A stretch of 64,000 nucleotides of DNA from the NCBI GenBank assembly GCA_965228895.1, contig OZ245842.1, positions 1,824,001 to 1,888,000 of the forward strand, in the 5' to 3' direction. How positions within the stretch are numbered: position 1 is the stretch's first letter; each line of letters opens with the position of its first letter. This document shows, one piece after another, positions 12,104-46,430 of this stretch. This DNA is from Alphaproteobacteria bacterium. GTDB taxonomy: Bacteria > Pseudomonadota > Alphaproteobacteria > SP197. The translations under genes were made by a program, and so were the position numbers. Below the pieces are notes generated by a model that had not been told where the DNA came from, searched no databases, and saw nothing but the letters and a program-made list of their open reading frames with translations.

Positions 12104-12166
12104 GATGGGAACTCCAGGGTTGGGTGGGGATGGCGGTCGCAGCCTAGGCCCGGCCGAGGTGATGGT

Positions 12167-13159: not shown

Positions 13160-13176
13160 ACGTCCAGTTCCGGTTT

Positions 13177-14313
13177 CTATCCGAGCACCCGGTCGAGGAC
13201 CCAGTTGTCAATGGTGTGGACCAACGGCTCCATGTACGAGAAGCGGCCGGGCTTCACGAAGGGTGAGCTGATGCCGATCTGCTGGATATCGGAGATCTCG
13301 TTGTCTTCAACAATCGATTTATTCCAGCGTTCGTAGTAATTGCCCACCAATTCGTCGAAGTCGTCGCGCGCCACCGTCTGTTTCGGAAAACAGGAACCGA
13401 CGATCAGTTTTGTGCGCCCGGCGCTGATCGGATGCAGTTCCAGCCACCACATGCAGTCATAGGTGAGCCCGAACATGGTCGAGGGATTGATCAAGACATA
13501 GTACGTGCCTTGTGCGGCCAAGCCGTCCAATGTCGGGATAAAGGGAAACCCTTTCGCGCCCGGCAACAGCGCCCGGCTTCCTTCATGACGGGTAAAGAGG
13601 CCGCAGTATTCGCCGGCGGTTGGGATCGGCGGATTGTGATCGCGTTTCTGCTTCTGGATCGTCTGCTGATGCACGGTCGGGACGTGATAGGACTCCATCG
13701 CGTTCTCGACATAAATTTTCCAGTTACACGCGAGGTCGTATTCGACGCGGCGCGTCGTCACCATGTCTTCGAGTTTGTAACTCGCCAGGACCTCAGGCAG
13801 GTCGCCCAGCCAGTTTGATAGCGGTTCGGCGTCGTGATCGAAGTTCAGAAACAGGAAACCGGCCCAGGTCTCCAAGCGCAGTTCGATCAGGCCGAAGTTC
13901 TTGCGGTCGAAACCATCGGTTTCGTCCATTTCCATGGCGCCGATCAGGCGGCCGTCAAGCGCATAGGTCCAACTGTGATAGGGGCAGGTCATGACGGTGC
14001 AGTTACCGTCGCCCTGCATCACCTTGGCGCCACGATGGCGGCAGGAGTTGGCGAAGGCGCGAACGGTACCGTCGCGGTCGCGTACGATGACAACGGGAAC
14101 GCCGGCGAATTCGAAGGCCGCATAGTCGCCGGGGTTGGGAACGCGGTCTTCACGGCCGACGAAGTTCCAGACCTTCAGAAAGATCGTTTCGACCTCGCGC
14201 CGATAGAACGCCTCGGAGGTGTAGCATTCCGGCGGCAGCGTATCGGCTTCGAGCAGCGGGCGGCGGACCGCCTCGTAGCGGGTGGGGTCGAACAGGTTGG
14301 TGATCTCATTCAT
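13177..14313 (-). CDS. Rieske non-heme iron oxygenase alpha subunit (choline monooxygenase/betaine demethylase-like)
   Basis: CRHRG...CPYHSW Rieske motif; NWKIYVENAMESYHVPTVH mononuclear iron motif. Confidence 0.9.
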   Translation of the reverse strand: MNEITNLFDPTRYEAVRRPLLEADTLPPECYTSEAFYRREVETIFLKVWNFVGREDRVPNPGDYAAFEFAGVPVVIVRDRDGTVRAFANSCRHRGAKVMQGDGNCTVMTCPYHSWTYALDGRLIGAMEMDETDGFDRKNFGLIELRLETWAGFLFLNFDHDAEPLSNWLGDLPEVLASYKLEDMVTTRRVEYDLACNWKIYVENAMESYHVPTVHQQTIQKQKRDHNPPIPTAGEYCGLFTRHEGSRALLPGAKGFPFIPTLDGLAAQGTYYVLINPSTMFGLTYDCMWWLELHPISAGRTKLIVGSCFPKQTVARDDFDELVGNYYERWNKSIVEDNEISDIQQIGISSPFVKPGRFSYMEPLVHTIDNWVLDRVLG

Positions 14314-15836: not shown

Positions 15837-17905
15837 GGCGTGACTTCCCTGTTCAAAACAACGCGTTCGCGTCGGTAACGCAAGCCATCATCCTCCTGTG
15901 TTTGAAATTCGCGTGCATGGCGGTGGCCCGCGTAAACGGCGTCGACAATCAAACCGGGCGCCAAACAATCGCCAATGGCGGTCAGGCTTTCGATTCCGCC
16001 GCCGAGCGTCTCGCCAGTTGGTGCCTTCAGTGCGTGGTAGAGATCATCGTTCGGTTCGCGCGAGGTCGCCAGAACAAGAGCCGCGCACGGCGTCGACGTG
16101 ACGGTGCCGGGACCAAGGTGAACGGCTTCGACACTGTTGCCATCGAAGGCCGACAGCTTGTGCAGGACCAGTGGCTTGACGCCGGCCTCATAGAGGCGGG
16201 GCACGAGAAGGTGATGTTCGTCGGTCCACTGTGTCCAGACGCTGGGCTCCGGCGCAGGTGTCATCAGCGTGACGTCGTGCCCTTCGCGGGCCAGCTTTTC
16301 GGCGAGCGCGCCTGCCATGTAGTAGTGGTCGTCGTCATAGATCACGACCGGTCCCACGATGTCTGATCCTGCGAGAACGTCGTCCGGTGTCAACACGTTC
16401 GCGGCGTCGGGAAGATCCAATGGTTCGACATGGGTGCGCCCGGTACCGTCGCGACGCCACGTGCAGCCCGTCGCGACAACCACATGCGGGAAACCGAACT
16501 CGCGCACATCGTCGGGCGTCAACTGGCTGTCGCGGTAGATCTCGACATGTGACATGCGCTCCAACTGACCGATGCGCCAGTCGGTGACACGTTTCCAGGC
16601 CGCCAGGCCAGGCAGGCGGGCGACACGGTCGACATGCCCACCCAATTCGGTGCCGGCTTCGGCGAGCGTCACCGGATAGCCGCGCGCGCCGAGCGCCCGC
16701 GCCGCTTCAAGACCAGCCGGACCGGCGCCGACCACAAGCACGCGATCATCAGACGCCGACGGGTTCATCACCTCAGGATGCCAGCCGCTACGCCATTCCT
16801 CGCCCATGGTCGGGTTCTGGGTGCAGCGGATGGAAACGCAGCCCTTGAAGGTCGCGCGGCAGATATTGCAGCCGATGCACTCGCGGATGTCGTCCAGACG
16901 TCCTTCCTCGACCTTCTTGGGCAGGAACGGATCGGCGATCGACGGGCGGGCGGCGCCGATCATGTCGAGCACGCCGCGTTTGATCTGCGAGACCATGGTG
17001 TCGGGGCTGGTGAAGCGGCCGACGCCGACCACGGGCCGCGTGGTCAACGGTTTGACGACCGAGGCGTGGACCTCCTGAAATCCTTCCTCGAAGAAACGCG
17101 AACTGCCGCTGTCGGTGCGGTAGTCCGCGATATTGACGTCCCAGAGATCGGGCAAGTCGGCGAGCAGGGCGACCACGTCCTTGCCTTCGTCCGCGCTCGT
17201 CAGGCCGGGTTCGCCGACAAGCTCGTCGAGGGAAAAACGGACGACGACGGCGCAGGTATCGCCGATCGCCTCCTTCGTCTCCTCGATCATCTCGCGGAAC
17301 AGACGTACGCGGTTTTCCAGGCTGCCGCCGTATTCATCGCTGCGTTTGTTAAAGCGCCGGCTGATGAACTGGGCCGGCAGGTAGGCGTGACCGGCATAGA
17401 CGTAGACGATATCGAAGCCCGCGCGTTTGGCGCGCTTGGCGGCATCGACCTGCCAGCGCCGCAAGTCCTTAATGTCGGCCTTGTCCATGGTGCGCGCGTG
17501 CAGCGGATTCAGATAGCCGATCGGCCTGCCGGATGGCGCCATCGGCACGTCGCGTGTCATCTTGACCGGCGAATAGAGCCCGCCGTGCCATAGCTGTGTT
17601 CCCGCCAGTGCGTCGTGTTCGTGAATCGCATCGGCGGTCACCGCCATGGTGCGGACGTCGTCTTCGTCCCACAGGCTACAGGTCGGAAACGGCGCGTCAT
17701 CGGCGGTCGGATGGATCGAGGTGTATTCGGTGCACACCACGCCCCAGCCACCTTCGGCCTTGATGCCGCGCATGGCGGCAAGCGTCTGCGGCAGGTTGTA
17801 GCCCATGCCGGTGCAGTGCGGCACCTGATAGAATCGGTTCTTGGCCGTGACCGGGCCAATCGGGACGGGTTCGAACAGGATGTCGTAACGGGGATCGCGA
17901 CTCAT
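15833..17905 (-). CDS. Trimethylamine/dimethylamine/histamine dehydrogenase-family flavoprotein
   Basis: MSRDPRYDILFEP...NRFYQVPHC (FMN-linking Cys), YVYAGH, CIGCNIC...CTQNP 4Fe-4S motif, GAGPAGLEAA. Confidence 0.88.
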   Translation of the reverse strand: MSRDPRYDILFEPVPIGPVTAKNRFYQVPHCTGMGYNLPQTLAAMRGIKAEGGWGVVCTEYTSIHPTADDAPFPTCSLWDEDDVRTMAVTADAIHEHDALAGTQLWHGGLYSPVKMTRDVPMAPSGRPIGYLNPLHARTMDKADIKDLRRWQVDAAKRAKRAGFDIVYVYAGHAYLPAQFISRRFNKRSDEYGGSLENRVRLFREMIEETKEAIGDTCAVVVRFSLDELVGEPGLTSADEGKDVVALLADLPDLWDVNIADYRTDSGSSRFFEEGFQEVHASVVKPLTTRPVVGVGRFTSPDTMVSQIKRGVLDMIGAARPSIADPFLPKKVEEGRLDDIRECIGCNICRATFKGCVSIRCTQNPTMGEEWRSGWHPEVMNPSASDDRVLVVGAGPAGLEAARALGARGYPVTLAEAGTELGGHVDRVARLPGLAAWKRVTDWRIGQLERMSHVEIYRDSQLTPDDVREFGFPHVVVATGCTWRRDGTGRTHVEPLDLPDAANVLTPDDVLAGSDIVGPVVIYDDDHYYMAGALAEKLAREGHDVTLMTPAPEPSVWTQWTDEHHLLVPRLYEAGVKPLVLHKLSAFDGNSVEAVHLGPGTVTSTPCAALVLATSREPNDDLYHALKAPTGETLGGGIESLTAIGDCLAPGLIVDAVYAGHRHAREFQTQEDDGLRYRRERVVLNREVTP

Positions 17906-17911
17906 TATGTC

Positions 17912-18177
17912 AGTACCCACTATCACGGAAGGACAGCACGTTTGATCGCCTTTTCGTGCCCTCTGGCCAGGAAGCGCCGCGAAGGCGATGCGGTGCATCG
18001 GTTAGAGGCGATGACGCCGCCAGGGGTCATGAAAAGCGACCCTTCGGGCGGCATAGCGCGCCTCTCGGACGTCGTTGCACGGCCCTTGTGATGTGCCGGT
18101 ATCACGACGGGCCGCGCGCCTAGCCGAGAAACGTGCCAAGCTGTCATACGTGTTGTCCTTCCGTGATAGTGGGTACT
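17912..18177. mobile_element. MITE-like element with 30-bp terminal inverted repeats
   Basis: AGTACCCACTATCACGGAAGGACAGCACGT (17912-17941) versus the reverse complement of 18148-18177, one mismatch; internal hairpins; no transposase. Confidence 0.8.
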
Positions 18178-25745: not shown

Positions 25746-26489
25746 TTATGACATCAAACGCTCGCCGCAAGACGCCAGGATATCGGCAACGCCGTCGCCG
25801 ACACCTTCGCCGCGCCGGTCGCTGCGGATGTAGATGCCTTGGGTCTCGTCGGCGTAATTCTTCATGATCCGCTCGACCTCGGCCTCCGGCCACACGGGTG
25901 TTGGCACGTAGACGGCCGATATGCGGATGTTCATGGATGCGGCCTGACGCGCCAGGCTGTCGGCCAGCGCGTCATCGACACCGGGCGTGTAAAGATCGTC
26001 GACGCCGCCGGGCAGCTGGTCGGTGATCAAGATGACGATGCGCACGTCGCCTTCGAAGGTGCCGTTGAAGTCGCCGATTCGGTACTGGCCGTCGGGCGGC
26101 AGGCGGTTGAGCACGGTGGCCAACGCGTCAGCCGACGCTTCGGGAATCTGTTCGCCGCCCGCCGCGCCCAGGCGTGAGAGGTTGTGGGCGACGGATTCTT
26201 TCTTCGTCGATGGGGTCGGGCTGGCGTTGAGGTCGTCGAGAACCTGAATGTACTCGCGAAACACCACCAGGCCGAGACGGTAGTCACCACCCGAGAGCTG
26301 TTCGATGTCATCGAGTAGACCGATCGCCTGGCGCTGAATGCTGAGCAGGGCACCCCACATGCTGCCGGATACATCCAGGACGAAGACGACATCCATGGAG
26401 CCGCACTGGCGTTCCGGCTGCTGAGCTTGGGTCGCCGTCGTGAAGAGGCTCAGCATAACTGCGGCCGCGATGGAGGAAAGCCAGTTCAT
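25746..26489 (-). CDS. Secreted von Willebrand factor A domain protein
   Basis: Signal peptide (..ATQA-QQ), DVVFVLDVSGSM MIDAS motif, RLGLVVFR, ILITD. Confidence 0.82.
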   Translation of the reverse strand: MNWLSSIAAAVMLSLFTTATQAQQPERQCGSMDVVFVLDVSGSMWGALLSIQRQAIGLLDDIEQLSGGDYRLGLVVFREYIQVLDDLNASPTPSTKKESVAHNLSRLGAAGGEQIPEASADALATVLNRLPPDGQYRIGDFNGTFEGDVRIVILITDQLPGGVDDLYTPGVDDALADSLARQAASMNIRISAVYVPTPVWPEAEVERIMKNYADETQGIYIRSDRRGEGVGDGVADILASCGERLMS

Positions 26490-26560
26490 GGTGCCGACCA
26501 TCTTGCCACAGGTCTGGCACACATCCATGACAACCCTGGCAAGCCATTCAGCGGACCGGT

Positions 26561-27640
26561 TCAGGGAGGCGGGGTGTTCCAGGCGCGGAACGGCTTGCCG
26601 CAGGAGGCCTCCAGGCGTGCGGTGTAGTCAGCCAGCATGGCGGTGCCGGGCATGTTCCTGACGTCGAGCTCGAACGCCCAATCGCCCGCGAGATCGGGCA
26701 ACTGATCCGCCCAGAACCGGCGTTCGGAATCGCTCAAGTGATGAAGTTTGGCGCCGCGGTCGACCATTGTCTCGACCGCCGACTGACCGTAATCGGTTTG
26801 CGAGATGGACAGTTCGCGGCCATAGGCTTCGGCCGCCTCGCGTAACGCGATCTGGACACTCGGGCGTTGGCGGTCGAACCACTCGCGGTTAGCGACCAGG
26901 CCGCCCTCGTAGAGGGCGCCCAGGCCGGCGTCGGTCAGGTAGGGCGCGTCGCCATCGAGCGACAGTCGTTCGATATCGGCTGCATGGGTAATGACGCCGT
27001 CGATCTTGCCGGTTGCCAACCCCACTGCAAAGGTTCGGTCATCGCCGGCCAAAGCCGTGGCGCCGGTTCCCTGCAACCATTCAACCGCGAGTTCCGGTGT
27101 CGAGATCACCTTTCCATCCAAGTCATCAAGCCGTTCTACGGGTGAGGTCGTGGCGAGCAGATAAGGGCCTTCAGCATAGCCGCCGCCCAGGTAGACCAAA
27201 CCGTGACTTGCCCATGCCAGGTCGAGGGCGTCGTACTCGTTGTTCATGGCGTCGATCACCGGACCGATGACGGATGGGGCATCACAGGAAAAGGGCGTCG
27301 CATAACTGACGCTGAGCGGATAGAACGACCAGGGATGGCGGGTCAGGGAGACAAGCGCCACCTGGACCTCGCCCGACGTGACGAGGTCAAAGACCGCACT
27401 CGGTTCGTCGGCAGGTGTCACGGTTGTCCGGTGCCAGCGCACCGGCGTGCTCGACTGGTCGAGGGCGGCGGCAACATGCCGCTCAAAGATGGTGGCGAGC
27501 ATTCGCGTCGCAGGTGCATTTTCGTTTTCGGCAACCGCGAGTGTGATCTCAAGGTTGGCGCCCAACGTGTCGCTGCCGGTCACCAAGACGCCAACCAGGA
27601 CGACGGTCGTGAGATATCTGCTTAGCACGCGCGCCAGCAA
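26561..27640 (-). CDS. TRAP transporter substrate-binding protein (DctP-like)
   Basis: N-terminal hydrophobic leader, PVERLDDLDGK, GLATGKIDG, ANREWFD, ALREAA; start uncertain. Confidence 0.72.
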   Translation of the reverse strand: MLARVLSRYLTTVVLVGVLVTGSDTLGANLEITLAVAENENAPATRMLATIFERHVAAALDQSSTPVRWHRTTVTPADEPSAVFDLVTSGEVQVALVSLTRHPWSFYPLSVSYATPFSCDAPSVIGPVIDAMNNEYDALDLAWASHGLVYLGGGYAEGPYLLATTSPVERLDDLDGKVISTPELAVEWLQGTGATALAGDDRTFAVGLATGKIDGVITHAADIERLSLDGDAPYLTDAGLGALYEGGLVANREWFDRQRPSVQIALREAAEAYGRELSISQTDYGQSAVETMVDRGAKLHHLSDSERRFWADQLPDLAGDWAFELDVRNMPGTAMLADYTARLEASCGKPFRAWNTPPP

Positions 27641-27647
27641 AACCGGC

Positions 27648-28340
27648 CTACATCAAGTTCAGTTGGCGAAGGCTGGCATGACCGCTGCGCGCGACGACAA
27701 TATGATCGTGTACGACAATCTCGACCGTCTTCGCGGCAGTGACGATTTCGCCGGTCATGGCAATGTCGGCCCGGCTTGGCGTCGGATCGCCGCTGGGGTG
27801 GTTATGAACCAGGATCAATGCCGTCGCACCCAGTTCGATGGCGCGCTTCACCACTTCGCGCGGATAGACCGGCGTATGGTCGACCGTACCCCGCTGTTGA
27901 ACCTCGTCGGCCACCAGGCGGTTCTTCTTATCCAGGAACAGGATACGAAACTGCTCCTTTGCCTCGAAGGCCATGGCAGCGCGGCAATAGTCGATGACAC
28001 TCTCGAAGCTGCCAAGAATGGGGCGCGCTGCGAGCTCGCCCTTCAGCATTCGTGCGGCGGAGGCTTTGACCGTCATCAGCGCAATGGCTGTGTTCTGCTT
28101 GACGCCTTTGACCTCCATCAGCCGTTCCGGTTCGGCCGCGATGACCTCGGCAAAGCTGCCGAAGCGTTCAATCAGGTTCTTGGCGAGTGGTTTGACGTCG
28201 CTTCTGGGAATGGCGAAGGTCAGAAGCAATTCCAGCAGTTCATAGTCGGGCAGGCCTTCGGCGCCGTCGCGCAGAAAGCGCTGTCTCAACCGTTCGCGAT
28301 GGCCATGGTAGTGCGGCGTTTCCTTGGTGCCATCGGCCAC
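27648..28340 (-). CDS. radC: RadC family JAB-domain protein
   Basis: [41 protein letters not shown]; GTG start 28340. Confidence 0.95.
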
Positions 28341-28351
28341 GAACTTATGGC

Positions 28352-29170
28352 CTAGACGTAAGGGGGCAGCTCGTGACCGGCGGGCGACAAGGTGAACACC
28401 TCGACGCCATCGGATGTCACGCCGATCGTGTGTTCCCACTGCGCCGACAGAGACTTGTCGCGGGTCACTGCGGTCCAACCGTCCTCAAGGATCAGGACAT
28501 CGGGCCGGCCCAGGTTGATCATCGGTTCGATGGTGAAGAACATGCCTTCTTCCAACGCTACGCCGGCGCCCGGTCGGCCATAGTGCAGAACGTTGGGCTG
28601 GTCATGGAAGACCTGACCGATGCCGTGACCGCAGAAGTCGCGGACGACACTGCAGCGCTCGCTTTCGGCAAAGGACTGGATGGCATGGCCGATATCGCCC
28701 AGAGTCGCGCCTGGCTTCACGGTCTTGATGCCGCGCCACATGCACTCAAACGTTATCTCGACCAGACGCTCGGCTTTGCGTTTGACCCCGCCAACCGGGT
28801 ACATGCGGCTGGTGTCGCCATGCCATCCGTCAAGGATGACCGTGACGTCAATGTTGACGACGTCGCCTTCGCGCAGCGTCTTGTCAGCGCTGGGGATGCC
28901 GTGACAGATGACGTGGTTGATCGACGTGCAGATGGATTTCGGGAAACCCCGGTAGTTAAGCGGCGCCGGTATCGCGCCGTGGTCGACGATATAGTCATGA
29001 CACAGCCGGTCCAGATGTTCGGTCGTGACGCCGGGCGCGACATGGCTGGCGATCATGTCGAGCGTCGAGGCGGCCAGGTGGCCGGCCGCACGCATCTTCT
29101 CGAACGCGTCAGGACCGTGAATCCGGATCTGGGATTCCGGGTTTCGTTCCGCCCGCTTTAGCTGTTGCAT
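28352..29170 (-). CDS. map: Methionine aminopeptidase type I
   Basis: [44 protein letters not shown]. Confidence 0.97.
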
Positions 29171-29192: not shown

Positions 29193-29891
29193 TCATAAGT
29201 GAAGGGGCACCGCTTTATCTAGGACGATTTCGTCCGGGGTCAATCTACACGAATAGGCAAGGGCCTCAACGCCGCGCGCCATGGCGTCGCGCAGAGCGGC
29301 CGCGTAGGTCGGGTCAATGTCTTCGGCGACGGCGAAGCCCGGGCAGTCCATCCGCTGGATCACATAGAAGACGGCTGCGCGATGGCCGGCCTCGACCATA
29401 TTGGCCAATTCGCCCATGTGTTTGGCGCCGCGCGCCGTGACGGCGTCCGGAAACTCGGCCAGCTTGTCACGTTTCAAATGACAGTTCTTGATTTCGACGT
29501 AGCAGGACGGCCGGCCGGCTTGTTCGAGCAGGATATCGATGCGCGAGTTGACGCCATACTTGACCTCACGCCGTAGCGTTTCATAGCCGGTCAGTTCCGG
29601 CACGGCACCGGCCTCGATGGCCTCGGCGACCAGGCCGTTTGGGTGGGACGTGTTGATGCCGACAAGCCCGCCATCGGCATGGGCCAGTTGCCAATCCCAT
29701 TTGAGCTTGCGTTTGGGATTGTTGGCCGGCGACAGCCAGGTCTCCATGCCCGGTTCCTTCAGGCCGATCATGCCGCCTGGATTGGCGCAATGGGCGGTAA
29801 CCGTCTCGCCCGATTCCAACTCGTGATCGGACAGAAAGCGTTTGTAGCGCTTGATCAGCCGGGCTCGCTCGAGAGGGTAGGGGAACTGCAC
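29193..29891 (-). CDS. sfsA: SfsA DNA/RNA nuclease
   Basis: RYKRFLSD, HCANPGGM, SRIDILL, YVEIKNC, FPDAVTARGAKH. Confidence 0.95.
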   Translation of the reverse strand: MQFPYPLERARLIKRYKRFLSDHELESGETVTAHCANPGGMIGLKEPGMETWLSPANNPKRKLKWDWQLAHADGGLVGINTSHPNGLVAEAIEAGAVPELTGYETLRREVKYGVNSRIDILLEQAGRPSCYVEIKNCHLKRDKLAEFPDAVTARGAKHMGELANMVEAGHRAAVFYVIQRMDCPGFAVAEDIDPTYAAALRDAMARGVEALAYSCRLTPDEIVLDKAVPLHL

Positions 29892-29906
29892 CGCAGGTGC
29901 TCCAAA

Positions 29907-30431
29907 CTATGGCGCTGGTTGAACCGAGGGTTGGAAGATCATGCCGGGCTCATCAGGTGGCGGTTTTTCCGGAAGTGCCGGCTGAGGCTCGGCGTAGAAC
30001 ACGAGGCCGGAGCGTTCCTCGATCGTCGCATCTTCTTTGGACAGCCTCACCATGACGTCAGTCGCCATTTCCTGCGCCGTATCTGCGGCTTCCTTAAGCC
30101 TGACAGCGGTGTCGCGGTCCCAGTCCAGCACATAGGCGCGCGGCTCGATCTCGCCCTCGTGGCGCAGCCAGATATAGATTGCCACACCTTCGCGAATATC
30201 GGCGCCGACCAGCACAGCACCCTGATGAAAATCTCTGAACCACTCCATGGTGATTGGCTTGGGCCGGCCCATCAATCCCATGGCATCGATATACAGAAGC
30301 GGCACGAGAACCGCCAGCGCGCCAAGCGCGGCCAGCTTGCGCCACAGCTTGCCGCGCGCACGGATCGCCGACCAGGCCAGTATGGCCATCAGCACAAAGG
30401 TCGCGGCAAAAAGACCGGTCACGAAATCCAT
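29907..30431 (-). CDS. Uncharacterised membrane protein (2 TM, Pro-rich C-terminus)
   Basis: Two N-terminal hydrophobic helices, GRPKP, AIYIWL, EPRAY, tail PQPALPEKPPPDEP; starts 2 bp after upstream stop. Confidence 0.75.
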   Translation of the reverse strand: MDFVTGLFAATFVLMAILAWSAIRARGKLWRKLAALGALAVLVPLLYIDAMGLMGRPKPITMEWFRDFHQGAVLVGADIREGVAIYIWLRHEGEIEPRAYVLDWDRDTAVRLKEAADTAQEMATDVMVRLSKEDATIEERSGLVFYAEPQPALPEKPPPDEPGMIFQPSVQPAP

Positions 30432-30433
30432 GA

Positions 30434-31057
30434 CTACAGCCGTTCGCCTTCGTCCGGTACACGCAGCGGTTTGTAGAGATCGTTGACGGTGAACGGCAGC
30501 AGCCCGCCGGCCTGATTGAGCTCGAACCGGAACACCGTGAGTTCCTGGTCTTCGCGCACCAGCTCGACCTTGGACAGCAGGATCTGTTGCGCCGGTTTGT
30601 CGGGCGAACGTTTGACGCTGACCATCGCCACGACCTCGATTGGCCAATCGGCGGTATGGTTGCGGTACATGTGGACGTTGACGGCGTACTCGCCCTCCGG
30701 AACGCCCCGGCTATAGGCCATTTCGTAGTTCATCGACGTGACGTCGCGAAAATGGCCGAGGTCGTCGCGCAACAGGTCAAAGATGACGCCGCCCCGGTTC
30801 GAGTAGCCCACCGGCACGTCGCCTGGACCCTGGACCCATAGATCGACATCGGCATCGACATGTTCGCGCCAGCGGATCTCGACGATCACGTTGCCGGGCG
30901 CCATCAGGTCGGCCTGCTTTTCCTCCGGCGGATTGACGTGGGGCAGAAGCAGAATGACGAGCGCCACGAACCCGAGCAGGGCGAGCATGATGACGTCGCG
31001 GAAGACCGTGCCGCCGGCATCCTCATCGAGCGGATCAAGCGCTCGCACGAGCCTCAC
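30434..31057 (-). CDS. Uncharacterised single-TM protein with MotB/ExbD-like TM Asp and YfaP/DUF2135-like soluble domain
   Basis: VFRDVIMLALLGFVALVILLLP helix, then W...DADVDLWV.GP, RDDLG, GEYAVNVHMY; start may be GTG 31048. Confidence 0.7.
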   Translation of the reverse strand: MRLVRALDPLDEDAGGTVFRDVIMLALLGFVALVILLLPHVNPPEEKQADLMAPGNVIVEIRWREHVDADVDLWVQGPGDVPVGYSNRGGVIFDLLRDDLGHFRDVTSMNYEMAYSRGVPEGEYAVNVHMYRNHTADWPIEVVAMVSVKRSPDKPAQQILLSKVELVREDQELTVFRFELNQAGGLLPFTVNDLYKPLRVPDEGERL

Positions 31058-31733
31058 CCAATTCGACGACTGCGGCGATCAGGCGAACCGTGCCCGTTGC
31101 CAACAATTGATAGTTGGCCATCAGCCAAATGTTGAACACGGCGCCCACCAAGGTCGTCATGAGGGCCGTCGACATGCCCTGGATCAGCGTCGTCACCATG
31201 GCCGAAATCTTCTCGGTTTCACCGACCGTTTCGGGGTCGACACCGCTCAGCGCAATGATGAAACCAATGACCGTGCCAATCAGCCCCAGAAACACAAGAC
31301 TGTTGCCGATATGGCGTACCAGGGTGATCCGCTGGCTCAGTTTCAGTCGCAAGGACGACCCAAGGATCTGACGGCTCTGCGCGTCCTTGCCCGCGGTCTT
31401 CTCGAGATAGGAGGCGGCAATCGAGCCGGCTACCGGATCGGCTTGGCGGGCCCGGTTGATTTCTCGGCTGGTCTCGAAGACGTGCCAGCAGGCAAGCGCA
31501 AGACCGACCACAAATACACCCGCAATCACCAGGACAAGGTGGGTGCTGTCCGCCTGGACCACCCGTGATACCAGGCCACCGCCCCAAGCCGCGACCAACA
31601 GGGCAAGGGCAATGACGTTGAGCAGGCCAAACCGTAACAAAAGTAGGTAACTATAGGGATCATTGGCGGAATCGAGGCTCTGATCCCCGCTAATCGGGGC
31701 AGAACCCGGCATTTCTTCGGTGGTGGTCGTCAT
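31035..31733 (-). CDS. MotA/TolQ/ExbB proton channel family protein
   Basis: LVFLGLIGTVIGF and GMSTALMTTLVG signature helices; two additional N-terminal TMs. Confidence 0.9.
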   Translation of the reverse strand: MTTTTEEMPGSAPISGDQSLDSANDPYSYLLLLRFGLLNVIALALLVAAWGGGLVSRVVQADSTHLVLVIAGVFVVGLALACWHVFETSREINRARQADPVAGSIAASYLEKTAGKDAQSRQILGSSLRLKLSQRITLVRHIGNSLVFLGLIGTVIGFIIALSGVDPETVGETEKISAMVTTLIQGMSTALMTTLVGAVFNIWLMANYQLLATGTVRLIAAVVELGEARASA

Positions 31734-31864
31734 GGCCGCCCCGGCTATTGGTCATAAAACCACTATAACGGCCGCCCGCAAGCGCACCAATCCAAGCTTT
31801 GTTGATCGCTGCGGGAGCGCGCCCTTGTTGCGCCGGCGCGCCTGCTGGGGCATGAAGCGGCCAT

Positions 31865-31977
31865 CTAGAGCAGATCCCATCAAAGCCGGTGAATCTGCTC
31901 TACTCATAGATAAAGAGCGGATTCACATGGTGAGGTGGAGCCGTCAGCAGGTTCCACCTCACCATGATCCGCTCTAG
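31865..31977. repeat. RIME/Bru-RS/CIR-like intergenic palindromic element (113 bp)
   Basis: Ends CTAGAGCAGATC...GATCCGCTCTAG (11/12 IR); hairpin TAGAGCAGAT/ATCTGCTCTA and a 14-bp perfect stem CATGGTGAGGTGGA/TCCACCTCACCATG. Confidence 0.8.
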
Positions 31978-31990
31978 CGCCGGAGCCAGC

Positions 31991-32752
31991 ATGTCCGACA
32001 CCATTACCGCCGCCGTCCTGATCATCGGCAACGAAATCCTGTCGGGCCGCACCCAGGACGCCAACCTGGCTTATCTGGGCAAAAGCCTGAATGAGATCGG
32101 CATTCAGCTCAAAGAGGCCCGCGTCGTGAGCGACGACGAGGCCGAGATCGTCGACGCGGTCAACGCGTTGCGGGCGCGCTACGACTATGTCTTCACCACG
32201 GGCGGGATCGGGCCGACCCATGACGACATCACGGCCGACAGCGTCGCCAAGGCGTTTGGCGTTGGCATCGATTACCACCCGGAAGTCTATGAGGTCCTGA
32301 AAGCCAACTTTGAAAGCCGTGGCATGGAAGTGAACGAGGCGCGCATGCGTATGGCGCGTGTTCCCGACGGCGCCAAGTTGATCGACAACACGGTGAGCCT
32401 GGCGCCGGGATTCGAGATCGAGAACGTCTTTGTGCTGGCCGGCGTGCCGTCGATCGCACGCGCCATGTTCGATGGCGCCAAGAACCGACTGCGGCGCGGT
32501 GCGACGGTGTTGTCGCGATCGATCCGGGTCCATGTCGGGGAGGGGACGGTGGCGGCCGACTTGGCCGAAGCGCAGGCCGTGTTCCCCGATGTCGATATGG
32601 GCAGCTATCCCTGGTCGGAAGACGGCAAGTACGGCACCAGCCTGGTCCTTCGGTCAATCGACCGGGAACGCCTTGACCTTGCTTTCGATCACGTCTTCAA
32701 GCTGACCGAGGCGCTTGGCGGCAAGCCCCACGAGGAACCGGTCGCCGACTAA
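31991..32752 (+). CDS. CinA-like molybdopterin-binding domain protein
   Basis: IIGNEILSGRTQDAN, TGGIGPTHDDIT, LAGVP, GSYP. Confidence 0.92.
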   Translation: MSDTITAAVLIIGNEILSGRTQDANLAYLGKSLNEIGIQLKEARVVSDDEAEIVDAVNALRARYDYVFTTGGIGPTHDDITADSVAKAFGVGIDYHPEVYEVLKANFESRGMEVNEARMRMARVPDGAKLIDNTVSLAPGFEIENVFVLAGVPSIARAMFDGAKNRLRRGATVLSRSIRVHVGEGTVAADLAEAQAVFPDVDMGSYPWSEDGKYGTSLVLRSIDRERLDLAFDHVFKLTEALGGKPHEEPVAD

Positions 32753-32836
32753 GCACGGTCGGATTATTCTGCGTGTCGGGCGTGTCGGCGCGCATCTCGG
32801 CTTGCCTTGTCGAGGCTGCCACTCTATTCGTTGGTC

Positions 32837-33256
32837 ATGGCCCGTCGATTCACAACCCGGCGTTTTCGCAAGCTAGGCGCGTGGCTCGCCATCGTCGCGA
32901 TGGCCGCTCATGTCGGCCTTGCCGCGATGTCGGGTATTGCCATGGCGGCCATGCCCGACAGCGAGACACCGGACGATTGGCCGTTCGGCGCTTTCGTCAT
33001 CTGTACGCCCGACGGTGTCCAGCTCGGCGGATCGGCTGATGCCGATTCATCGTCGCAGGCAAACCCGGGCGATCATTGCGGCAGCTGCATTACGGCCTGC
33101 TGCGCCGGGATGGGCTGTGAACGTGCCGGTGGTGCGCTGGTGCTGCGCCAACCGCTGGGCCATGCGGTCGCCGGTTGGCCGGCCGTTGGCCGGCATCTCG
33201 CAAAACCCGCCCCGACTGCGATCCTCGGCAGTCGCGGACCGCCGCTCTCCGCTTAA
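32837..33256 (+). CDS. DUF2946 family protein (CruR-like leader)
   Basis: Basic N-terminus plus TM, VICTPDG, HCGSC CxxC motif, C-terminal SRGPP; precedes a copper chaperone gene. Confidence 0.8.
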   Translation: MARRFTTRRFRKLGAWLAIVAMAAHVGLAAMSGIAMAAMPDSETPDDWPFGAFVICTPDGVQLGGSADADSSSQANPGDHCGSCITACCAGMGCERAGGALVLRQPLGHAVAGWPAVGRHLAKPAPTAILGSRGPPLSA

Positions 33257-33336: not shown

Positions 33337-33855
33337 ATGTACAAGTCTGTTGTGCGAGGCGCAGCCGTCGCCGCACTCATCCTGACGTACACTGGCGGCG
33401 CGCTCGCCATCGTTTTTTTCGCCTTGCCCGCTTCGGCCCACGACTATGAGCATGGCGACCTCACGATCATGCACCCGGTGGCGCGCCCCTCCATGGGGGC
33501 GGCCGCCAACAGCGCAGTCTATCTGACCATCGAGAACGCGGGCGAGGACGATCGCCTGGTTGCCGTGTCGAGCGATGTCGCTGAACGCGTCGAATTGCAC
33601 ACGACGATCATGGAAGACGGCGTTTTAAAGATGCAAGAAGTGGAGGAGGGCATCGCCGTTCCCGCCGATGACAAGGCGATGCTCGAGACCGGCGGCCACC
33701 ACGTCATGCTGATGGGGCTGGCCGAGCCGTTACGGGTCGATGACAGTTTCGTGCTGACGTTGGAGTTCGAGAACGCCGGTCCGATCGAGATCGAGGTGAT
33801 TGTGGTTCACCCCGAGGAACTGGGCGAAACCATGCATATGGAGAGCCATGATTAA
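33337..33855 (+). CDS. Periplasmic copper chaperone PCu(A)C
   Basis: AVYLTIEN, DRLVAV, ELH-x10-M and GGHHVMLMG copper ligands; His/Met tail. Confidence 0.92.
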   Translation: MYKSVVRGAAVAALILTYTGGALAIVFFALPASAHDYEHGDLTIMHPVARPSMGAAANSAVYLTIENAGEDDRLVAVSSDVAERVELHTTIMEDGVLKMQEVEEGIAVPADDKAMLETGGHHVMLMGLAEPLRVDDSFVLTLEFENAGPIEIEVIVVHPEELGETMHMESHD

Positions 33856-41036: not shown

Positions 41037-42059
41037 ATGCCCGGGATCGTCACAGCACCGATCGATCATCCTGTTGCTTGGCGCGCCAGCGATTTTGCTT
41101 CGCCCGACCAGATTGCGGTCGCGTTGACGTCGGTGCAGCGGCGCATCCTGGCCGACTTAGGGCGACGCGTGTGCAGCCAGGGTCGCGGCTGGCGCGACTT
41201 GACCGCGGCAGAAGAGGCACTGCCGGACCTCGCCGAAACGTTGTCCGATGTTCGCCAGCAGGTCTATGGCGGGCGGGGCCTCGTCCTGCTGCGCGGTTTG
41301 CCGATGGGCGAACTCAACGAAGACGAGGCGGCCGTTGCCGCGTGGGCGGTGGGAAGTCATTTTGGACGCCGGGCTACCCAGAGCGCACTCGGCGACATGC
41401 TTGGCCGTGTCGAAATTGACCCCAACCTGCAGCAGACCTGGCGGGGTTATCGCAGCTCTGCGCAATCGAGGTTTCACACCGATCACGTTGACGGCTTGGC
41501 ACTAGCCTGTGTGCGCCCGGCGGGGTCGGGCGGTGCATCGTGCGTCGTCAGTGCGGCCGCCATTCATAACGTGTTGGCCGCCGAACGGCCGGATCTTCTG
41601 CCGGCATTGTACCAGGGCTTTCGCATGCATTGGTTCGGCGAGCCGCCCGCGTCTGGTGAGACAGTGACCGACCTCGACGTGCCGGTCTTTTCCTGGAGCG
41701 AAGACCGCATCGTCTGCGTGATGTTGCCGAGCTACATGGAGGCCGCCGCCAAGGAGCTCGGCGTCGCGATGCCGCCCTTGCTGGCCGAGGGTTGCGCCAT
41801 GATGCACGAGATCGCCGCACGTGACGGTATGGCGCTGAACTTCATGCTCGAAGCCGGTGACATGCTGGTGATCGACAACAAAGCCGTCCTGCACGGCCGG
41901 GCGGCGTTTGAAAGCAGCCCGGCGGAACTCAGCCGCAGATTGCTCTTCCGCTTGCAGTTTGAAGTCCTGCCGCTCAGACCCGCCCATCCCGGCGTGGTAC
42001 ACTACTATGACGGCCTTAAGCGCGCCTATCGCGATCCCGGCGCCAGGGCGTGCGCCTGA
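41037..42059 (+). CDS. TauD/TfdA (clavaminate synthase-like) Fe(II)/2OG dioxygenase
   Basis: GRGLVLLRGLP, FHTD facial-triad motif, IDN...LHGR, RRLLFRL. Confidence 0.85.
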   Translation: MPGIVTAPIDHPVAWRASDFASPDQIAVALTSVQRRILADLGRRVCSQGRGWRDLTAAEEALPDLAETLSDVRQQVYGGRGLVLLRGLPMGELNEDEAAVAAWAVGSHFGRRATQSALGDMLGRVEIDPNLQQTWRGYRSSAQSRFHTDHVDGLALACVRPAGSGGASCVVSAAAIHNVLAAERPDLLPALYQGFRMHWFGEPPASGETVTDLDVPVFSWSEDRIVCVMLPSYMEAAAKELGVAMPPLLAEGCAMMHEIAARDGMALNFMLEAGDMLVIDNKAVLHGRAAFESSPAELSRRLLFRLQFEVLPLRPAHPGVVHYYDGLKRAYRDPGARACA

Positions 42060-42161
42060 CGGACCTTACTTCCAAACACGACCGAGGCCAGTCTTGTTGC
42101 GACGACAAGCGAACTTCATCGCACATAGGACGTACGTGCGATGTTGAACGCAGTCCCGCAG

Positions 42162-42833
42162 TTAGGCGCGGTCGGACTTGCGCGGCAGGGTGTCGGGCAG
42201 GTAGAGGCCCAGATAGGCGATGCCGACCCGGATAGCTTCATCCAGCATGGATTTCACGATCTTGTCGTGTTCGATGACCGACAGAGAGAACATGTAATGG
42301 GTCAATTCGACATAATAGAAAAAGACGTCCTTGGGTCGCGGGATCTTTGGCAGTTCGTACATGTTGTCGAAGACGTCGTACATCACCAATCCCGCGCGCC
42401 GCTCTTTTATGCGGTCCTGTAGCTGGAACACGGGCGGCGTTGTCCCACCGATGAGAAGCCGTCTTGCTGGTGGCGTTTCGTTGTAGAGCGCCGCGATTCT
42501 TTTCATCTGGTAACGCACCAGAGATTGCCAGTCATGGTTCGCTCTGGCCGGAAGAGGTTGCTGTGCGACCTCGACAAACTGACGGCTCAAGTCGTCCGAC
42601 AAAGCCATGAACACGTCATAGCGATTTGCGAAGAAATGATAGGCGGACCCTTCGGGAACGTTTGCTCTGTTGGCGATTTCAATGAAGGTGATCTCCTCCA
42701 GTGGCCGGTCACACAGCAGTTCATAGGCAGCCTTCAGAAGCGCCTCTCGCCGTTGCTTGCCGCGTTTGCGGACTCCTACATTGGTCTTGCGCAAGCCCAT
42801 TTTTTGTCGTTGTGCCATGATGGATTCCGTCAT
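42162..42833 (-). CDS. TetR/AcrR family transcriptional regulator
   Basis: RREALLKAA...IANRANVPEGSAYHFF HTH; start uncertain. Confidence 0.88.
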   Translation of the reverse strand: MTESIMAQRQKMGLRKTNVGVRKRGKQRREALLKAAYELLCDRPLEEITFIEIANRANVPEGSAYHFFANRYDVFMALSDDLSRQFVEVAQQPLPARANHDWQSLVRYQMKRIAALYNETPPARRLLIGGTTPPVFQLQDRIKERRAGLVMYDVFDNMYELPKIPRPKDVFFYYVELTHYMFSLSVIEHDKIVKSMLDEAIRVGIAYLGLYLPDTLPRKSDRA

Positions 42834-43357
42834 CGCGATGACATGGCGATGAACGTACAGCCATTTGGTGTTGAAGGGTAATCGAGTCCTGCTGGGCGAA
42901 TGAACCGGCCACACACAAGGACCGGGGATTACCGTCGATGACGTGACATGAAGCCCCAAGTCCCCCATCGGGCATCATCGACGTTGAATGTCCCCGCAAC
43001 GAGGTAGCGCAGTTCGTTACCCGTTTGGAGCAGGCTGCGCTTCATCCCCGCGTCGACGGTGACTTGCCCGAAGGTGAGAAGGGCGATCTACGCGGCCGGA
43101 TCACGCTGACGTTCATTCATCAAGGTCCCGATCCGAGACGAGATGAGCCAGCCTTCGGATAGCCGGTAACCTCTGCCTTTCGCCCAGGAGAACCCGCATG
43201 GTCCGGCCGGGGCCCAGAAAAACCTATAACTGGCCGTTATGTTTGGCCGTGTCGTTGCATTCTTAAGCGCACGCCGGCCATTCAATCGGCTACACTTGGT
43301 CTTCGATTCTGGTTCTTGAACAAGTGTTGCCTTCAAGCGGCGACCAGGTTGTGCGTT

Positions 43358-43585
43358 ATGGATGACATCGACTACGGCGAGAAAGTGAGGCTGGTCGCTT
43401 CGTGGTTGCCGGACGGCTATGAGGACATCAGTCTGGCCGAAGCGGTAGTCAAGGTGATGGCCCTTGAAGCGTTGAGGGATGACATGAACGTCGGCATCGT
43501 GCGTGCCGGCCGTACGGCATTGACGACGCGTCAGCAGATCAAGGCAATATTCGACCGGCCCGATTTCCCGCACAGCGATAGATGA
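43358..43585 (+). CDS. Small hypothetical protein
   Basis: 75-aa ORF with protein-like composition in a large intergenic gap; no family recognised. Confidence 0.45.
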   Translation: MDDIDYGEKVRLVASWLPDGYEDISLAEAVVKVMALEALRDDMNVGIVRAGRTALTTRQQIKAIFDRPDFPHSDR

Positions 43586-43812
43586 TATCTGCACGCTAAG
43601 TGAGCCCGATACGGGCTGCGTCCTGTGCGATGCACGCGCGAGCCTGGTCAACTCGAACCGGCCGGAGTATTTTGCACACCACCATTGGCGAGTTTTTGAC
43701 GACTTCTACGGGTCGACTTGAGCTAAGATTACATCAGAACTTGGAGTTTTCTTGGTGATCGCCAAGATTTGCTGTAGTGATTAACGACATGTCTCATACT
43801 GGGAGGGGCAAG

Positions 43813-45594
43813 ATGTCCCAGTTTAAGACGTTCAAGGCAGTGTTGATCAAGCCGTCGCACTACGACGATGACGGCTATGTCATCCAATGGCTCAAATCGA
43901 TTATCCCATCGAACACGCTGGCGGCGCTTTATGGCGTCATCGGCGAATGCGCTGCGCGCAAGGTTCTGGGTGACGATGTCAACATCGAGATCGAAGCCTA
44001 TGATGAGACAAACACCGTCATCCCGATCAAGAGGATCGTTCGGTCGCTGAAGGAATGTGACGGCGGTTTCGTCGGACTGGTCGGCGTGCAGTCAAACCAG
44101 TTTCCACGTGCCATCGATCTGGCGCGACAATTCCGCATCCATGACCTCACTGTGATCATCGGCGGTTTCCACGTCGCCGGCAGCCTCGCCATGCTGCCGG
44201 AGGTGCCCAAGGAAATCAGCGATGCCCAGGAGATGGGTGTTTCGTTTTATGCAGGCGAGACCGAAGGGCGCATGGACGAGCTCTTGCACGACGTCTGGAA
44301 CGGCACGGTAAAGCCGCTCTATCGCTACATGGCTGACTTGCCGGAAATGGACGGCGCACCGGTTCCTTACCTGCCGGACGAGCTGGTTGCCAAAGCGGCC
44401 GGCAACTACACGAGTTTCGATTCAGGACGCGGCTGCCCGTTCCAGTGTTCGTTCTGCACGATCATCAACGTGCAGGGAAGAAAGTCACGCTATCGCTCGC
44501 CCGACGATATCGAGCAAATCATTCGGCTCAATGAAGAGCAGGGAATCCGTCGCTATTTCATCACCGACGACAACTTCGCGCGCAACAAGAACTGGGAAGC
44601 GATCTTGGACCGCATGATCTACCTGCGCGAGGAGGAGAAGTTCCGGTTCAAGTTCATTATCCAGGTCGACACGCTGTGCCATCGGACGGCTGGCTTTGTC
44701 GAAAAGGCGGCGCGTGCCGGCTGCAACCGCGTCTTCATCGGATTGGAGAACATCGACCCGGATGCGTTGATGTCGGCCAAGAAGCGGCAGAACAAGATCT
44801 GGGAATACCGCGACATGATGCAGGCCTGGAAACGTGCCGGCGTCATTACCTATGCCGGGTACATTCTGGGTTTTCCCGATGACACGCCGGAGAAGATCAG
44901 GCGCAATATCGAGATTATTCAGCGCGAGCTGCCGCTCGACCTCATCGAGTTCTTCTTTCTGACGCCGCTTCCGGGTTCCGAAGATCATCAGAAGATGCAC
45001 CGCGACGGCGTCTGGATGGATCCCGACCTCAACAAATATGACCTAAACCACCGCGTCTCGCATCATCCGGCAATGTCGGACGAGGCGTGGGACAAGATCT
45101 ACCTGGAAGCATGGAAGCTCTACTACACGCCCAAGCATTTCGAAACGGTGATCCGCCGCCAGGCCTCGCTCGGCCTGAAGACGAAGACCCTGTTCCACGG
45201 TATGGGCGGTTTCTACGCGTCGATCATGTACGCCAACGTGCATCCGCTGGAAGCCGGATTCTGGCGGCGCCGGGTGCGCAGTCAACGCCGGCACGGGCTA
45301 CCGCGCGAGAACCCGTTGATCTTCTATCCCAAGCGAACCTGGGTCGAGTTCTGGTCGCACGCCAAATTCCTGATGCTCTACCTGCGGCTTAAGCTCATTC
45401 ATGACCGTGTCGTCAAGGATCCGACGGTGCGTGCCTATACCGACCTCGCGATGACGCCGACGACTGACGACGAAGACAACGACCTGGACCTCATCAAGGT
45501 ATTCGAAGACCAGATCCCCGATACCTATGGCGCGCCGGTCAAGCGCAAGAAAAAGGACGGCACGGTAGAAGAAAAGATGATCGCCGCCGGGTGA
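43813..45594 (+). CDS. B12-binding-domain radical SAM protein
   Basis: GRGCPFQCSFC (CxxxCxxC), IIGGFH, ITDDNF, FIGLE, YILGFP; GGGAGG RBS. Confidence 0.88.
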   Translation: MSQFKTFKAVLIKPSHYDDDGYVIQWLKSIIPSNTLAALYGVIGECAARKVLGDDVNIEIEAYDETNTVIPIKRIVRSLKECDGGFVGLVGVQSNQFPRAIDLARQFRIHDLTVIIGGFHVAGSLAMLPEVPKEISDAQEMGVSFYAGETEGRMDELLHDVWNGTVKPLYRYMADLPEMDGAPVPYLPDELVAKAAGNYTSFDSGRGCPFQCSFCTIINVQGRKSRYRSPDDIEQIIRLNEEQGIRRYFITDDNFARNKNWEAILDRMIYLREEEKFRFKFIIQVDTLCHRTAGFVEKAARAGCNRVFIGLENIDPDALMSAKKRQNKIWEYRDMMQAWKRAGVITYAGYILGFPDDTPEKIRRNIEIIQRELPLDLIEFFFLTPLPGSEDHQKMHRDGVWMDPDLNKYDLNHRVSHHPAMSDEAWDKIYLEAWKLYYTPKHFETVIRRQASLGLKTKTLFHGMGGFYASIMYANVHPLEAGFWRRRVRSQRRHGLPRENPLIFYPKRTWVEFWSHAKFLMLYLRLKLIHDRVVKDPTVRAYTDLAMTPTTDDEDNDLDLIKVFEDQIPDTYGAPVKRKKKDGTVEEKMIAAG

Positions 45595-45683
45595 ATTCCC
45601 GCGCTTGTTCGACATACCGACGAGAGGTTAAGAAGGGTGGCCGTTTCTCGGTTGCTGGATCCAGCATGGGTTAAGGGAGGGCA

Positions 45684-46430
45684 ATGGCCAAATCGTTCGC
45701 AACACCGGCCAACAACATGCCGGTACAGGCGCCGCTCATCCCTGATCCGTTTGTGCCCTACAAATGCCCGGGAAATCGGTCGGTCTTTGCGGTTTGCCGC
45801 GGTAATGAGGTGGCGCTGCGTACCGTGCTGGAGCCGACACCGTTCGACTTTGTCGACGATCGATTCGTGGTGTCGGTCACCGATTTCAGCAACTGCGACA
45901 AGGTGCCGTTCTTCGATGCGGCGATCGTGATGCCCGTGCGTTTCGGTGACATGGCGGGCGGGCATTATGTGTTTGAGTATGAGGACGACGACCGTGCTAT
46001 CGCCGCCGGTCGCGACTTGTGGGGATACCCCAAAAAGTACGCCGCCATATCGTTGGAGCGGCATCACGATTTGGTGCGCGGCACTGCGGTGCGCCACGGC
46101 GTCACCATCATCGATGTCGAGGTGCCGCTGGAGTACGGCGCCAAAGCACCGAACAAGCCGGTGGTCGTGCCGCACCTCAACATCCGGTCCGTGCCGGCGC
46201 CGGACGGTCCGGGCACGTCGCTGCGTCAGGTCATCGTCAGAGACACGTCGCCGGACTTTGTTTTGAGTGAGGAACTCCACGGTCAGGCCAACGTTACGCT
46301 GAAGGCCATACCCGGTTGCCCCTTGGACGTCTTTCAGCCGGTCGAGGTGCTGGGCGGCGGGTTCACCACCGGCGATTTCTACGCGACCGAGGAAAATGGT
46401 TGGGGCCGCATCGTCGCCACACTCGATTGA
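45684..46430 (+). CDS. Acetoacetate decarboxylase-like superfamily protein
   Basis: AIAAGRDLWGYPKK Schiff-base lysine motif. Confidence 0.88.
   Translation: MAKSFATPANNMPVQAPLIPDPFVPYKCPGNRSVFAVCRGNEVALRTVLEPTPFDFVDDRFVVSVTDFSNCDKVPFFDAAIVMPVRFGDMAGGHYVFEYEDDDRAIAAGRDLWGYPKKYAAISLERHHDLVRGTAVRHGVTIIDVEVPLEYGAKAPNKPVVVPHLNIRSVPAPDGPGTSLRQVIVRDTSPDFVLSEELHGQANVTLKAIPGCPLDVFQPVEVLGGGFTTGDFYATEENGWGRIVATLD

Follow-up and report, generated by a model that had tools for sequence, protein, structure and literature searches.

Introduction

MotAB, ExbBD, TolQR and ZorAB are ion-driven motors with a 5:2 subunit ratio. Motors of the MotA/ExbB type power flagella, nutrient import, envelope stability, gliding and one phage defence, and each of them is defined by what its B subunit and partners touch. 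The present analysis compares with these systems a row of three genes, referred to as A, B and C, at positions 29907-31733 of a 64,000-nucleotide stretch of DNA from an Alphaproteobacteria bacterium (GenBank assembly GCA_965228895.1, contig OZ245842.1, positions 1,824,001 to 1,888,000 of the forward strand; the whole stretch is called the window, and coordinates refer to it). In bacteria and in phages alike, this trio and nothing else is conserved as a unit. The evidence tips modestly towards the reading that the trio encodes an inner-membrane machine, as yet undescribed, of the ion-driven MotA/ExbB kind (5:2), with its output in the membrane or periplasm and an envelope-level process as its task.

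Two ideas from one published study (Mol Biol Evol 2025, PMC12204202) are relevant here. TolQ-like pentamers with partners other than ExbD, namely Asp-bearing proteins with a vWA (von Willebrand factor A) domain, have been proposed there. Transducers of the TonB/TolA type are described in the same source as having a single N-terminal helix with a conserved His (SHLS-type motif).

Organization of the locus

The three genes are translationally coupled on the minus strand and form one operon. The main features are as follows.

Gene A: 31035-31733, minus strand; 232 residues, a minimal four-helix subunit of the MotA/ExbB superfamily as read from its sequence
Gene B: 30434-31057, minus strand; 207 residues as the longest open reading frame (ORF), single-pass protein with Asp21 in the membrane helix and a predicted periplasmic TerD-like beta-sandwich
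Gene C: 29907-30431, minus strand; 174 residues, predicted two-helix hairpin, small periplasmic OB-like domain and FYAxPQPxxPPK tail
A/B junction: 31035-31057, minus strand; B begins inside the end of A, a translational coupling read from the sequence
B/C junction: 30429-30436, minus strand; stop codon TAG of B, two nucleotides, then ATG of C, read from the sequence

An earlier note on this DNA, made from the sequence, had singled out the trio as a motor-like module. All the motifs of A, B and C that it quoted are present at the coordinates it gave; two small corrections concern the starts of B and C. Gene A ends with GCT TGA at 31035-31037. The candidate starts of B are GTG 31057 and GTG 31048, the latter preceded by a GGTGAGG stretch. 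B probably starts at GTG 31048 (204 residues, overlapping the end of A by 14 nucleotides), since a 98%-identical homologue of 204 residues has the same start. C lies inside a longer ORF (29907-30647), and its real start is placed at ATG 30431 (MDFVTG..., 174 residues) because five homologues are 174 residues long and cover 100% of the query. No sigma-70-like promoter was found in a scan of 29700-32050, and the terminator-like matches in the same interval were disregarded as lying inside genes.

No flagellar, TonB, Tol-Pal, TonB-dependent receptor, Zorya or phage genes were found by Pfam among the 62 other ORFs of the window, which agrees with the earlier statement that Ton, Tol, Mot and Zorya genes are missing from the neighbourhood. 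The genome holds a single copy of B, one canonical TolQ/ExbB and TolR/ExbD pair 1.26 Mb away, and a third, weak MotA_ExbB match. A prophage origin of the trio in the window was considered and rejected: the GC content (guanine plus cytosine) at 30-32 kb is 0.608, like that of the flanks, the syntenic neighbours are housekeeping genes, and the window is free of phage genes.

Conservation of the trio in bacteria

The B family is large. It has 5104 homologues in a collection clustered at 90%, all of them unnamed or hypothetical, and 1415 representatives of clusters at 50% identity, 762 of which match at E up to 1e-10. The bacterial loci analysed in this work are the best 80 of 571 relatives of B, obtained by a pattern scan of one genome per species with a 15-sequence alignment. 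They come from Alphaproteobacteria (Rhodospirillales, Geminicoccaceae, Azospirillum, Dongiaceae, Kiloniellales, Hyphomicrobiales), from Gammaproteobacteria, and from single Nitrospiraceae and Phycisphaeraceae assemblies. The order A-B-C was recovered by tblastn in 78 of these loci, and the other two stop at the edge of a contig right after B. Such an arrangement goes far beyond what chance would give. The identity of B is 55-60% across classes and phyla.

The surroundings of the trio are less constant. In the window, it is flanked by a cinA-like gene on one side and by sfsA, map and radC on the other. These flanking genes recur in 21-22 of the 80 loci, all from close relatives, and the trio has unrelated neighbours in 12 distant loci. 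All-against-all clustering of the 80 bacterial loci gave no fourth conserved gene, and none was found in the viral loci described below. The earlier note had looked to co-occurrence of the three genes elsewhere as a check on its proposal, and the three do occur together widely, in the 78 bacterial loci just mentioned and, as a complete set, in 51 of 63 viral loci.

At the level of whole genomes, B is present in 25 of 41 relatives, including 22 of the 24 genomes of the window's own family, and in 44 of 301 genomes of an even sample of the class. Two genomes of the class sample, of about 1.6 and 2.1 Mb, hold the trio among genes that look like housekeeping genes when judged by eye from their N-termini. 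The B proteins of these two small genomes have their nearest relatives in a deep viral clade (37-44% identity), which suggests exchange, in a direction that the tree does not give. In Azospirillum, the trio is carried on secondary replicons of 1.75-2.05 Mb (seven records, two places each). One alphaproteobacterial contig holds two trios about 7.5 kb apart (loci L049 and L052).

Phage-borne copies

Phage collections were searched because an Atlas cluster resembling C was 64% viral. Homologues of B were found in 17 records of cultured Rhizobium/Sinorhizobium phages and, in IMG/VR, in 61 viral contigs. When 63 phage and viral loci were scanned with profiles built in this work, B was detected in all of them, A in 55 and C in 57. 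The trio of phage 16-3 corresponds to p038 (A), p040 (B-like, with the helix Asp) and p042 (C-like), with two small ORFs between them. The p038 protein is 138 residues long and has four helices, the second and third of them separated by about 10 residues; its motifs are GFVGTLVG and GMATAFCSTITG. The A-like protein of RHph_X2_25 passes the Pfam MotA_ExbB model with 23.2 bits. Among the eight viral loci without a match to A, six have a protein of 133-152 residues with predicted membrane helices directly before B, and two end at the contig end.

According to PHROG annotation, the trio loci belong to real phage genomes and the insertion sites differ. The trio is located between tail sheath and tail tube genes, by head-closure and terminase genes, by SbcCD-like genes, or after a protease and before a repair exonuclease, and only A, B and C are common to all viral groups. 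In one group of myovirus-like contigs (L125, 2979-7860), its position between the tail sheath and tail tube genes is an unusual one for non-structural genes. In the group resembling 16-3, and in no other, a trypsin-like serine protease is encoded just upstream of the trio (13 of the 63 viral loci) and could be a lineage-specific partner. Examples are listed below in the coordinates of each locus.

Trypsin-like protease: L150, 3187-4086 (p036 of phage 16-3)
Trypsin-like protease: L151, 3586-4233
Trypsin-like protease: L107, 4543-5271
Trypsin-like protease: L119, 4699-5439

In a tree of B, the viral sequences lie in deep clades, with a crown made up of the bacterial ones; for bacteria, this midpoint-rooted tree contains the 80 rows most similar to the query, one row with fewer than 140 aligned residues was dropped, and no direction of transfer is claimed. 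Carriage of the module by phages did not figure in the earlier note, and it bears on the roles proposed there, namely envelope work, transport or defence.

The channel-like subunit A

Protein A contains FLGLIGTVIGF and QGMSTALMTTLVG. It passes the Pfam model MotA_ExbB (PF01618) with E 3.9e-10 and 40 bits against a cut-off of 22.9 over residues 116-219, as expected from its earlier assignment as a MotA/ExbB homologue, and nearly all of its listed homologues carry PF01618. The NCBIfam scores, in bits against the cut-off, are 22.1 against 100 for ZorA, 20.5 against 135.35 for exbB2, 18 against 221 for tolQ and 10.9 against 341 for PomA. PADLOC gives weak ZorA matches only (E 2e-6). The best sequence matches in the PDB are also weak (PomA, E 0.024; ZorA, 0.05-0.13; MotA, 0.47), and in this search T154 of A is aligned with T158 of PomA, which we take to be an ion-binding residue. 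When A is aligned by hhalign with the TolQ-like protein of its own genome, LGLIGTVIG falls on VGLFGTVWG and GMSTALMTTLVG on GIAEALFATALG.

The residues G150, G153, T154, G157, T193 and T194 are invariant in 42 homologues of A. T154 is kept in 78 of 79 bacterial and 45 of 55 viral A proteins, and T193 and T194, invariant in the bacterial proteins, are Thr or Ser in most of the viral ones. Judged by its sequence, A is a divergent protein of the MotA/ExbB superfamily in which the Gly/Thr signature of both pore helices is kept. These Thr residues (T154, T193 and T194) would face the Asp of the B helix.

Hydrophobic helices can be read in the sequence at about 28-50, 66-86, 145-163 and 180-210. The loop between helices 2 and 3 is basic and has about 58 residues, so that the cytoplasmic part is very small, and the protein ends shortly after helix 4 without a long tail. 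By our reading of these helices and of the PDB sequence matches, A would have a MotA/PomA-like four-helix topology with the N-terminus inside and a tiny cytoplasmic part.

The Asp-bearing subunit B

Protein B contains TVFRDVIML, DADVDLWVQGPGD, LLRDDLGH and GEYAVNVHMY. It matches no family in Pfam (E up to 1), NCBIfam, PADLOC or PHROGs, and the sequence search of the PDB returned nothing useful. The Asp of the FRD motif, D21, is at least 90% conserved in 68 diverse B sequences, in which W63, D70, D72, W74, G84, D98, D99, G101, E112, G122 and T174 are invariant. It is kept in 80 of 80 bacterial and 59 of 63 viral proteins, the remaining viral sequences having one Glu and three gaps, and D70 and D72 are kept in all 143 bacterial and viral sequences. 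When B is aligned by hhalign with the TolR/ExbD-like protein of its own genome, the membrane helix alone is matched, with FRD on FVD (E 0.009 over 24 columns, a weak match). The placement of an Asp in the B helix where MotB, ExbD and TolR carry theirs, as suggested earlier, is thus upheld by conservation and by this weak, helix-only alignment.

The AlphaFold2 model of B has a mean predicted local distance difference test (pLDDT) score of 91. It consists of a helix at 14-41, with the Asp near its cytoplasmic end, a short linker (about 15 residues) and, at 57-180, a sandwich of eight strands. The closest structures to the sandwich are a TerD homologue (2qz7_B, Z 8.5, 131 residues aligned, root-mean-square deviation 4.0) and TerD itself (2kxt, Z 7.7); no row after these exceeds Z 5.6, and most of the later rows belong to other sandwiches that bind Ca2+. 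Foldseek also returns TerD-like folds (E about 3e-3), and the viral structure library gives uncharacterised and TerD-like phage proteins with no functional name. In this confident model, the soluble domain is a TerD-like beta-sandwich with neither the OmpA nor the ExbD fold, as had been anticipated from the sequence. The likeness to DUF2135 (PF09906) suggested at the same time is weakly supported: the model matches 9 of the 68 family members weakly (best E 1.3e-4), and the nearest named ESM Atlas clusters carry this domain (score 0.83), but the B protein of the window itself is unmatched (E up to 1). The Pfam TerD model matches 1 of the 68 members at E 0.13.

Because of the short linker, the sandwich is expected to lie close to the membrane and wall anchoring is doubtful. 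Ca2+ binding by the sandwich is suggested by the invariant acidic residues together with the TerD-like fold.

The third protein, C

Protein C matches no family in Pfam, NCBIfam, PADLOC or PHROGs, and the sequence search of the PDB gave nothing useful. No curated family thus covers B or C. The AlphaFold2 model of C (pLDDT 83.7) contains helices at 2-24 and 29-54 joined by a basic loop, and a soluble domain of three strands, a helix and two strands, which is an OB-type strand order. Fold matches are weak (eIF5A 1xtd, Foldseek E 0.087; 8qzx_E, Z 5.9 with 70 residues aligned), the second coming from a search that used the whole model and whose list was filled by helical hairpins matching residues 1-57. 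Bacterial homologues share the FYAxPQPxxPPK tail. In 44 C sequences, P57, P59, E81, I85, P97, R98 and K156 are invariant, and no His occurs among the invariant or near-invariant columns. The sequence and model agree with the description of C in the earlier note as a protein with two membrane helices, a small soluble domain and a Pro-rich tail. Its comparison with TonB and TolA fares less well, as C has two membrane helices and no conserved His and the tail is absent from most viral C proteins.

Proposed mechanism

In the preferred reading, an ion-driven machine of the MotA/ExbB kind, five copies of A would surround two B helices, and proton flow via Asp21 and the ring of Thr residues would turn A around B. 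The sandwich of B, probably a binder of Ca2+, and C on the rim of the A ring would then deliver work in the membrane or periplasm. The output is placed there because A is almost without a cytoplasmic part, least of all in phages. The assignment of C as a rim-bound partner would follow the analogy with TonB and TolA, from which C differs in topology and in the absence of the His motif. The task would lie at the level of the envelope and be of use to cells and to infecting phages alike. As a preferred guess, and the weakest step of the scheme, this task may be the control of envelope integrity or passage across the envelope.

A more far-reaching version is tentative, and the chances are against it. 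It holds that the trio represents a new class of ion-driven membrane motors, whose TerD-like axle binds Ca2+ and stands in for MotB, ExbD, TolR or ZorB. Of such motors it would be the first known to travel with phages as a self-contained cassette, by which phages bring a proton-powered machine onto the host envelope when they infect. Many bacteria, some of them with small genomes, would retain this machine for a core function of the envelope.

Several points weigh against the motor scheme. The Pfam match of A is limited to the last two helices, and every specific ExbB, TolQ, PomA and ZorA model is far under its cut-off. T154 is replaced by Asn in 9 of 55 viral A proteins. In one viral clade (L102, L103, L105, L106, L109 and L120), the protein of 133-152 residues at the position of A is missed by the A profile; in all of these loci except L120, FTGIGII and ALAI(A/S)PN(I/V)(I/V)GV replace LGLIGTV and STALMTTLVG. 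The sandwich of B is probably a Ca2+ binder on the basis of fold and acidic residues only. Its linker is short, so that the sandwich probably does not reach the cell wall and the logic of an anchored stator has no obvious counterpart. Finally, the tail motif of C is absent from about 40 of 57 viral C proteins. A complex prediction of A, B and C at 1:1:1 with alignments scored 0.00 in both runs, which were made without controls, and is neutral on binding.

Alternative readings

With regard to role, we lean towards a core envelope function that was copied by phages over a role in conflict. This preference is based on the fixed synteny within the family, the high conservation of B across phyla, the presence of the trio in small genomes, and the lack of effectors and defence neighbours.

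The conflict role, which is compatible with the motor mechanism, is considered unlikely. According to it, the trio mainly excludes phages, for instance by blocking genome entry or sensing a breach of the envelope, in the manner of ZorAB but without cytoplasmic effectors; it would serve prophages and lytic phages against their competitors and bacteria as a defence. The B homologues in 17 cultured phage records and 61 viral contigs speak for such a role, as do the differing phage sites, which are typical of accessory cassettes. Against it, the trio keeps a single syntenic position (cinA-like, trio, sfsA, map) and is found in 22 of the 24 genomes of the window's family. The patchy distribution in the class (44 of 301 genomes) would also fit, but the identity of B across classes and phyla is unusually high for a defence gene, and the genomes of 1.6 and 2.1 Mb hold the trio among housekeeping genes. 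The ZorA models are the best specific models for A, though far below cut-off; in PADLOC, A matches ZorA weakly and B and C match no model. The window, metabolic and housekeeping in content, has no effector gene and no defence island.

It is improbable that the trio is a gated ion pathway or a sensor and not a rotary machine, with the TerD-like domain of B sensing periplasmic Ca2+ or another ligand and C acting as a regulator or scaffold. Such a device would suit the invariant acidic residues, the Ca2+-binding sandwiches that accompany TerD among the top fold matches, the short linker that holds the domain at the membrane surface, and the absence of an anchoring domain and of a cytoplasmic output domain. 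The conserved Asp and the Gly/Thr motifs are nevertheless the signature of the motor family, and we know of no characterised member of the MotA/ExbB family that is not a motor or an energiser.

An ordinary ExbBD-TonB, TolQRA or MotAB paralogue, with B and C diverged beyond recognition, is very hard to credit: the gene order (channel, Asp-bearing partner, third membrane protein) and the Pro-rich tail of C would fit, but this reading is contradicted by the beta-sandwich of B, which matches no ExbD or OmpA family and aligns with the TolR/ExbD-like protein of its own genome in the helix alone, by the two membrane helices of C and its lack of a conserved His, by the scores of A far below the tolQ (18 against 221), exbB (20.5 against 135) and PomA (10.9 against 341) cut-offs, and by a window without a TonB-dependent receptor, Pal or flagellar gene.

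Significance

If the ion-driven reading holds, the trio would add a further branch of motors, in which the axle protein and the third subunit lie outside curated families, and two sizeable families now labelled hypothetical would receive a name. A motor cassette borne by phages, if true, would represent a new type of accessory function in phages. The literature searches gave no paper on the trio, on DUF2135, or on p038, p040 and p042 of phage 16-3. The trio is directly testable, as it is present in Azospirillum brasilense Sp7 (replicon p1) and in Sinorhizobium phage 16-3, both harmless and cultivable.

Other features of the window

Five further regions of the window are of interest in their own right.

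25746-26528 and 26561-27640, minus strand: adjoining genes for a secreted or membrane-tethered vWA protein (Pfam VWA, E 6e-7) and a DctP-type solute-binding protein
27648-28478 and 28352-29170, minus strand: the last 127 nucleotides of the methionine aminopeptidase gene are shared with the longest RadC-like ORF; the real RadC start is probably further downstream
32807-33256, plus strand: ORF of 149 residues without a Pfam family, with the Cys-rich stretch GDHCGSCITACCAGMGC, just upstream of a PCu(A)C copper chaperone gene (33337-33855)
42001-46000: dip in GC content (0.558-0.579 against about 0.62 elsewhere) with a TetR-like regulator, a radical SAM protein of 605 residues and a gene of the acetoacetate decarboxylase family
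10649-17998, minus strand: MttB-family methyltransferase (E 3e-199), Rieske oxygenase, FMN/NAD oxidoreductase, HpaB-like hydroxylase and 2-hydroxyacid dehydrogenase

The vWA gene lies four genes downstream of the trio and outside the conserved unit; vWA proteins have been proposed elsewhere as motor-driven transducers (PMC12204202). The ORF of 149 residues may encode a copper-related membrane protein, and among the 80 bacterial loci it is present only in the nearest relative (L009). The region of low GC content may have been acquired horizontally. The MttB cluster resembles an island for the catabolism of methylated amines or aromatic compounds.

Comparison with known systems

The trio resembles the ExbB-ExbD-TonB and TolQ-TolR-TolA systems in that three inner-membrane proteins are encoded together, the channel subunit has helices with GxxGT and A-x-x-T/A-T-x-x-G, B has one helix with an Asp at the matching place, a periplasmic output is expected, and the third protein has a Pro-rich stretch. 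However, A is read as having four helices, with the N-terminus inside, instead of three, and it fails the specific family models. The predicted domain of B is TerD-like and not ExbD/TolR-like, C is modelled as a hairpin of two helices followed by an OB-like domain, without the single SHLS-type helix, and no outer-membrane partner genes lie beside the trio.

With MotAB and PomAB, the trio shares the four-helix A subunit, to which PomA chains are the closest solved structures by sequence (E 0.024), and the Asp in the B helix. In contrast, A is without the large cytoplasmic torque loop, B has neither an OmpA-like wall-binding domain nor a long plug or linker, flagellar genes are absent from the vicinity, and the third subunit C is an addition.

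ZorAB of Zorya is similar in having a MotA-like A subunit outside the Ton, Tol and flagellar systems, in the weak ZorA model matches and in the link to the phage world. Unlike Zorya, the trio has no long cytoplasmic tail on A, no ZorB-type wall-binding domain on B and no ZorC, ZorD or ZorE genes in the window, and it is carried by phages themselves.

The modelled domain of B has the beta-sandwich fold of the TerD type (Z 8.5 and 7.7). It differs from TerD and from DUF2135, the C-terminal domain of YfaP, in that the B protein of the window matches neither Pfam model and is membrane-anchored and paired with a MotA-like protein, a pairing for which the literature searches gave no description in either family.

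The closest published idea to A and B is the TolQ-like motor with an Asp-bearing vWA protein (PMC12204202). In both cases, a TolR/ExbD gene is missing and the Asp-bearing pore helix of the partner is fused to an unrelated periplasmic domain. This domain is a vWA domain in the published proposal and a predicted TerD-like sandwich in the trio, and the heterologous gene pairs described there stand against a single B together with the hairpin protein C.

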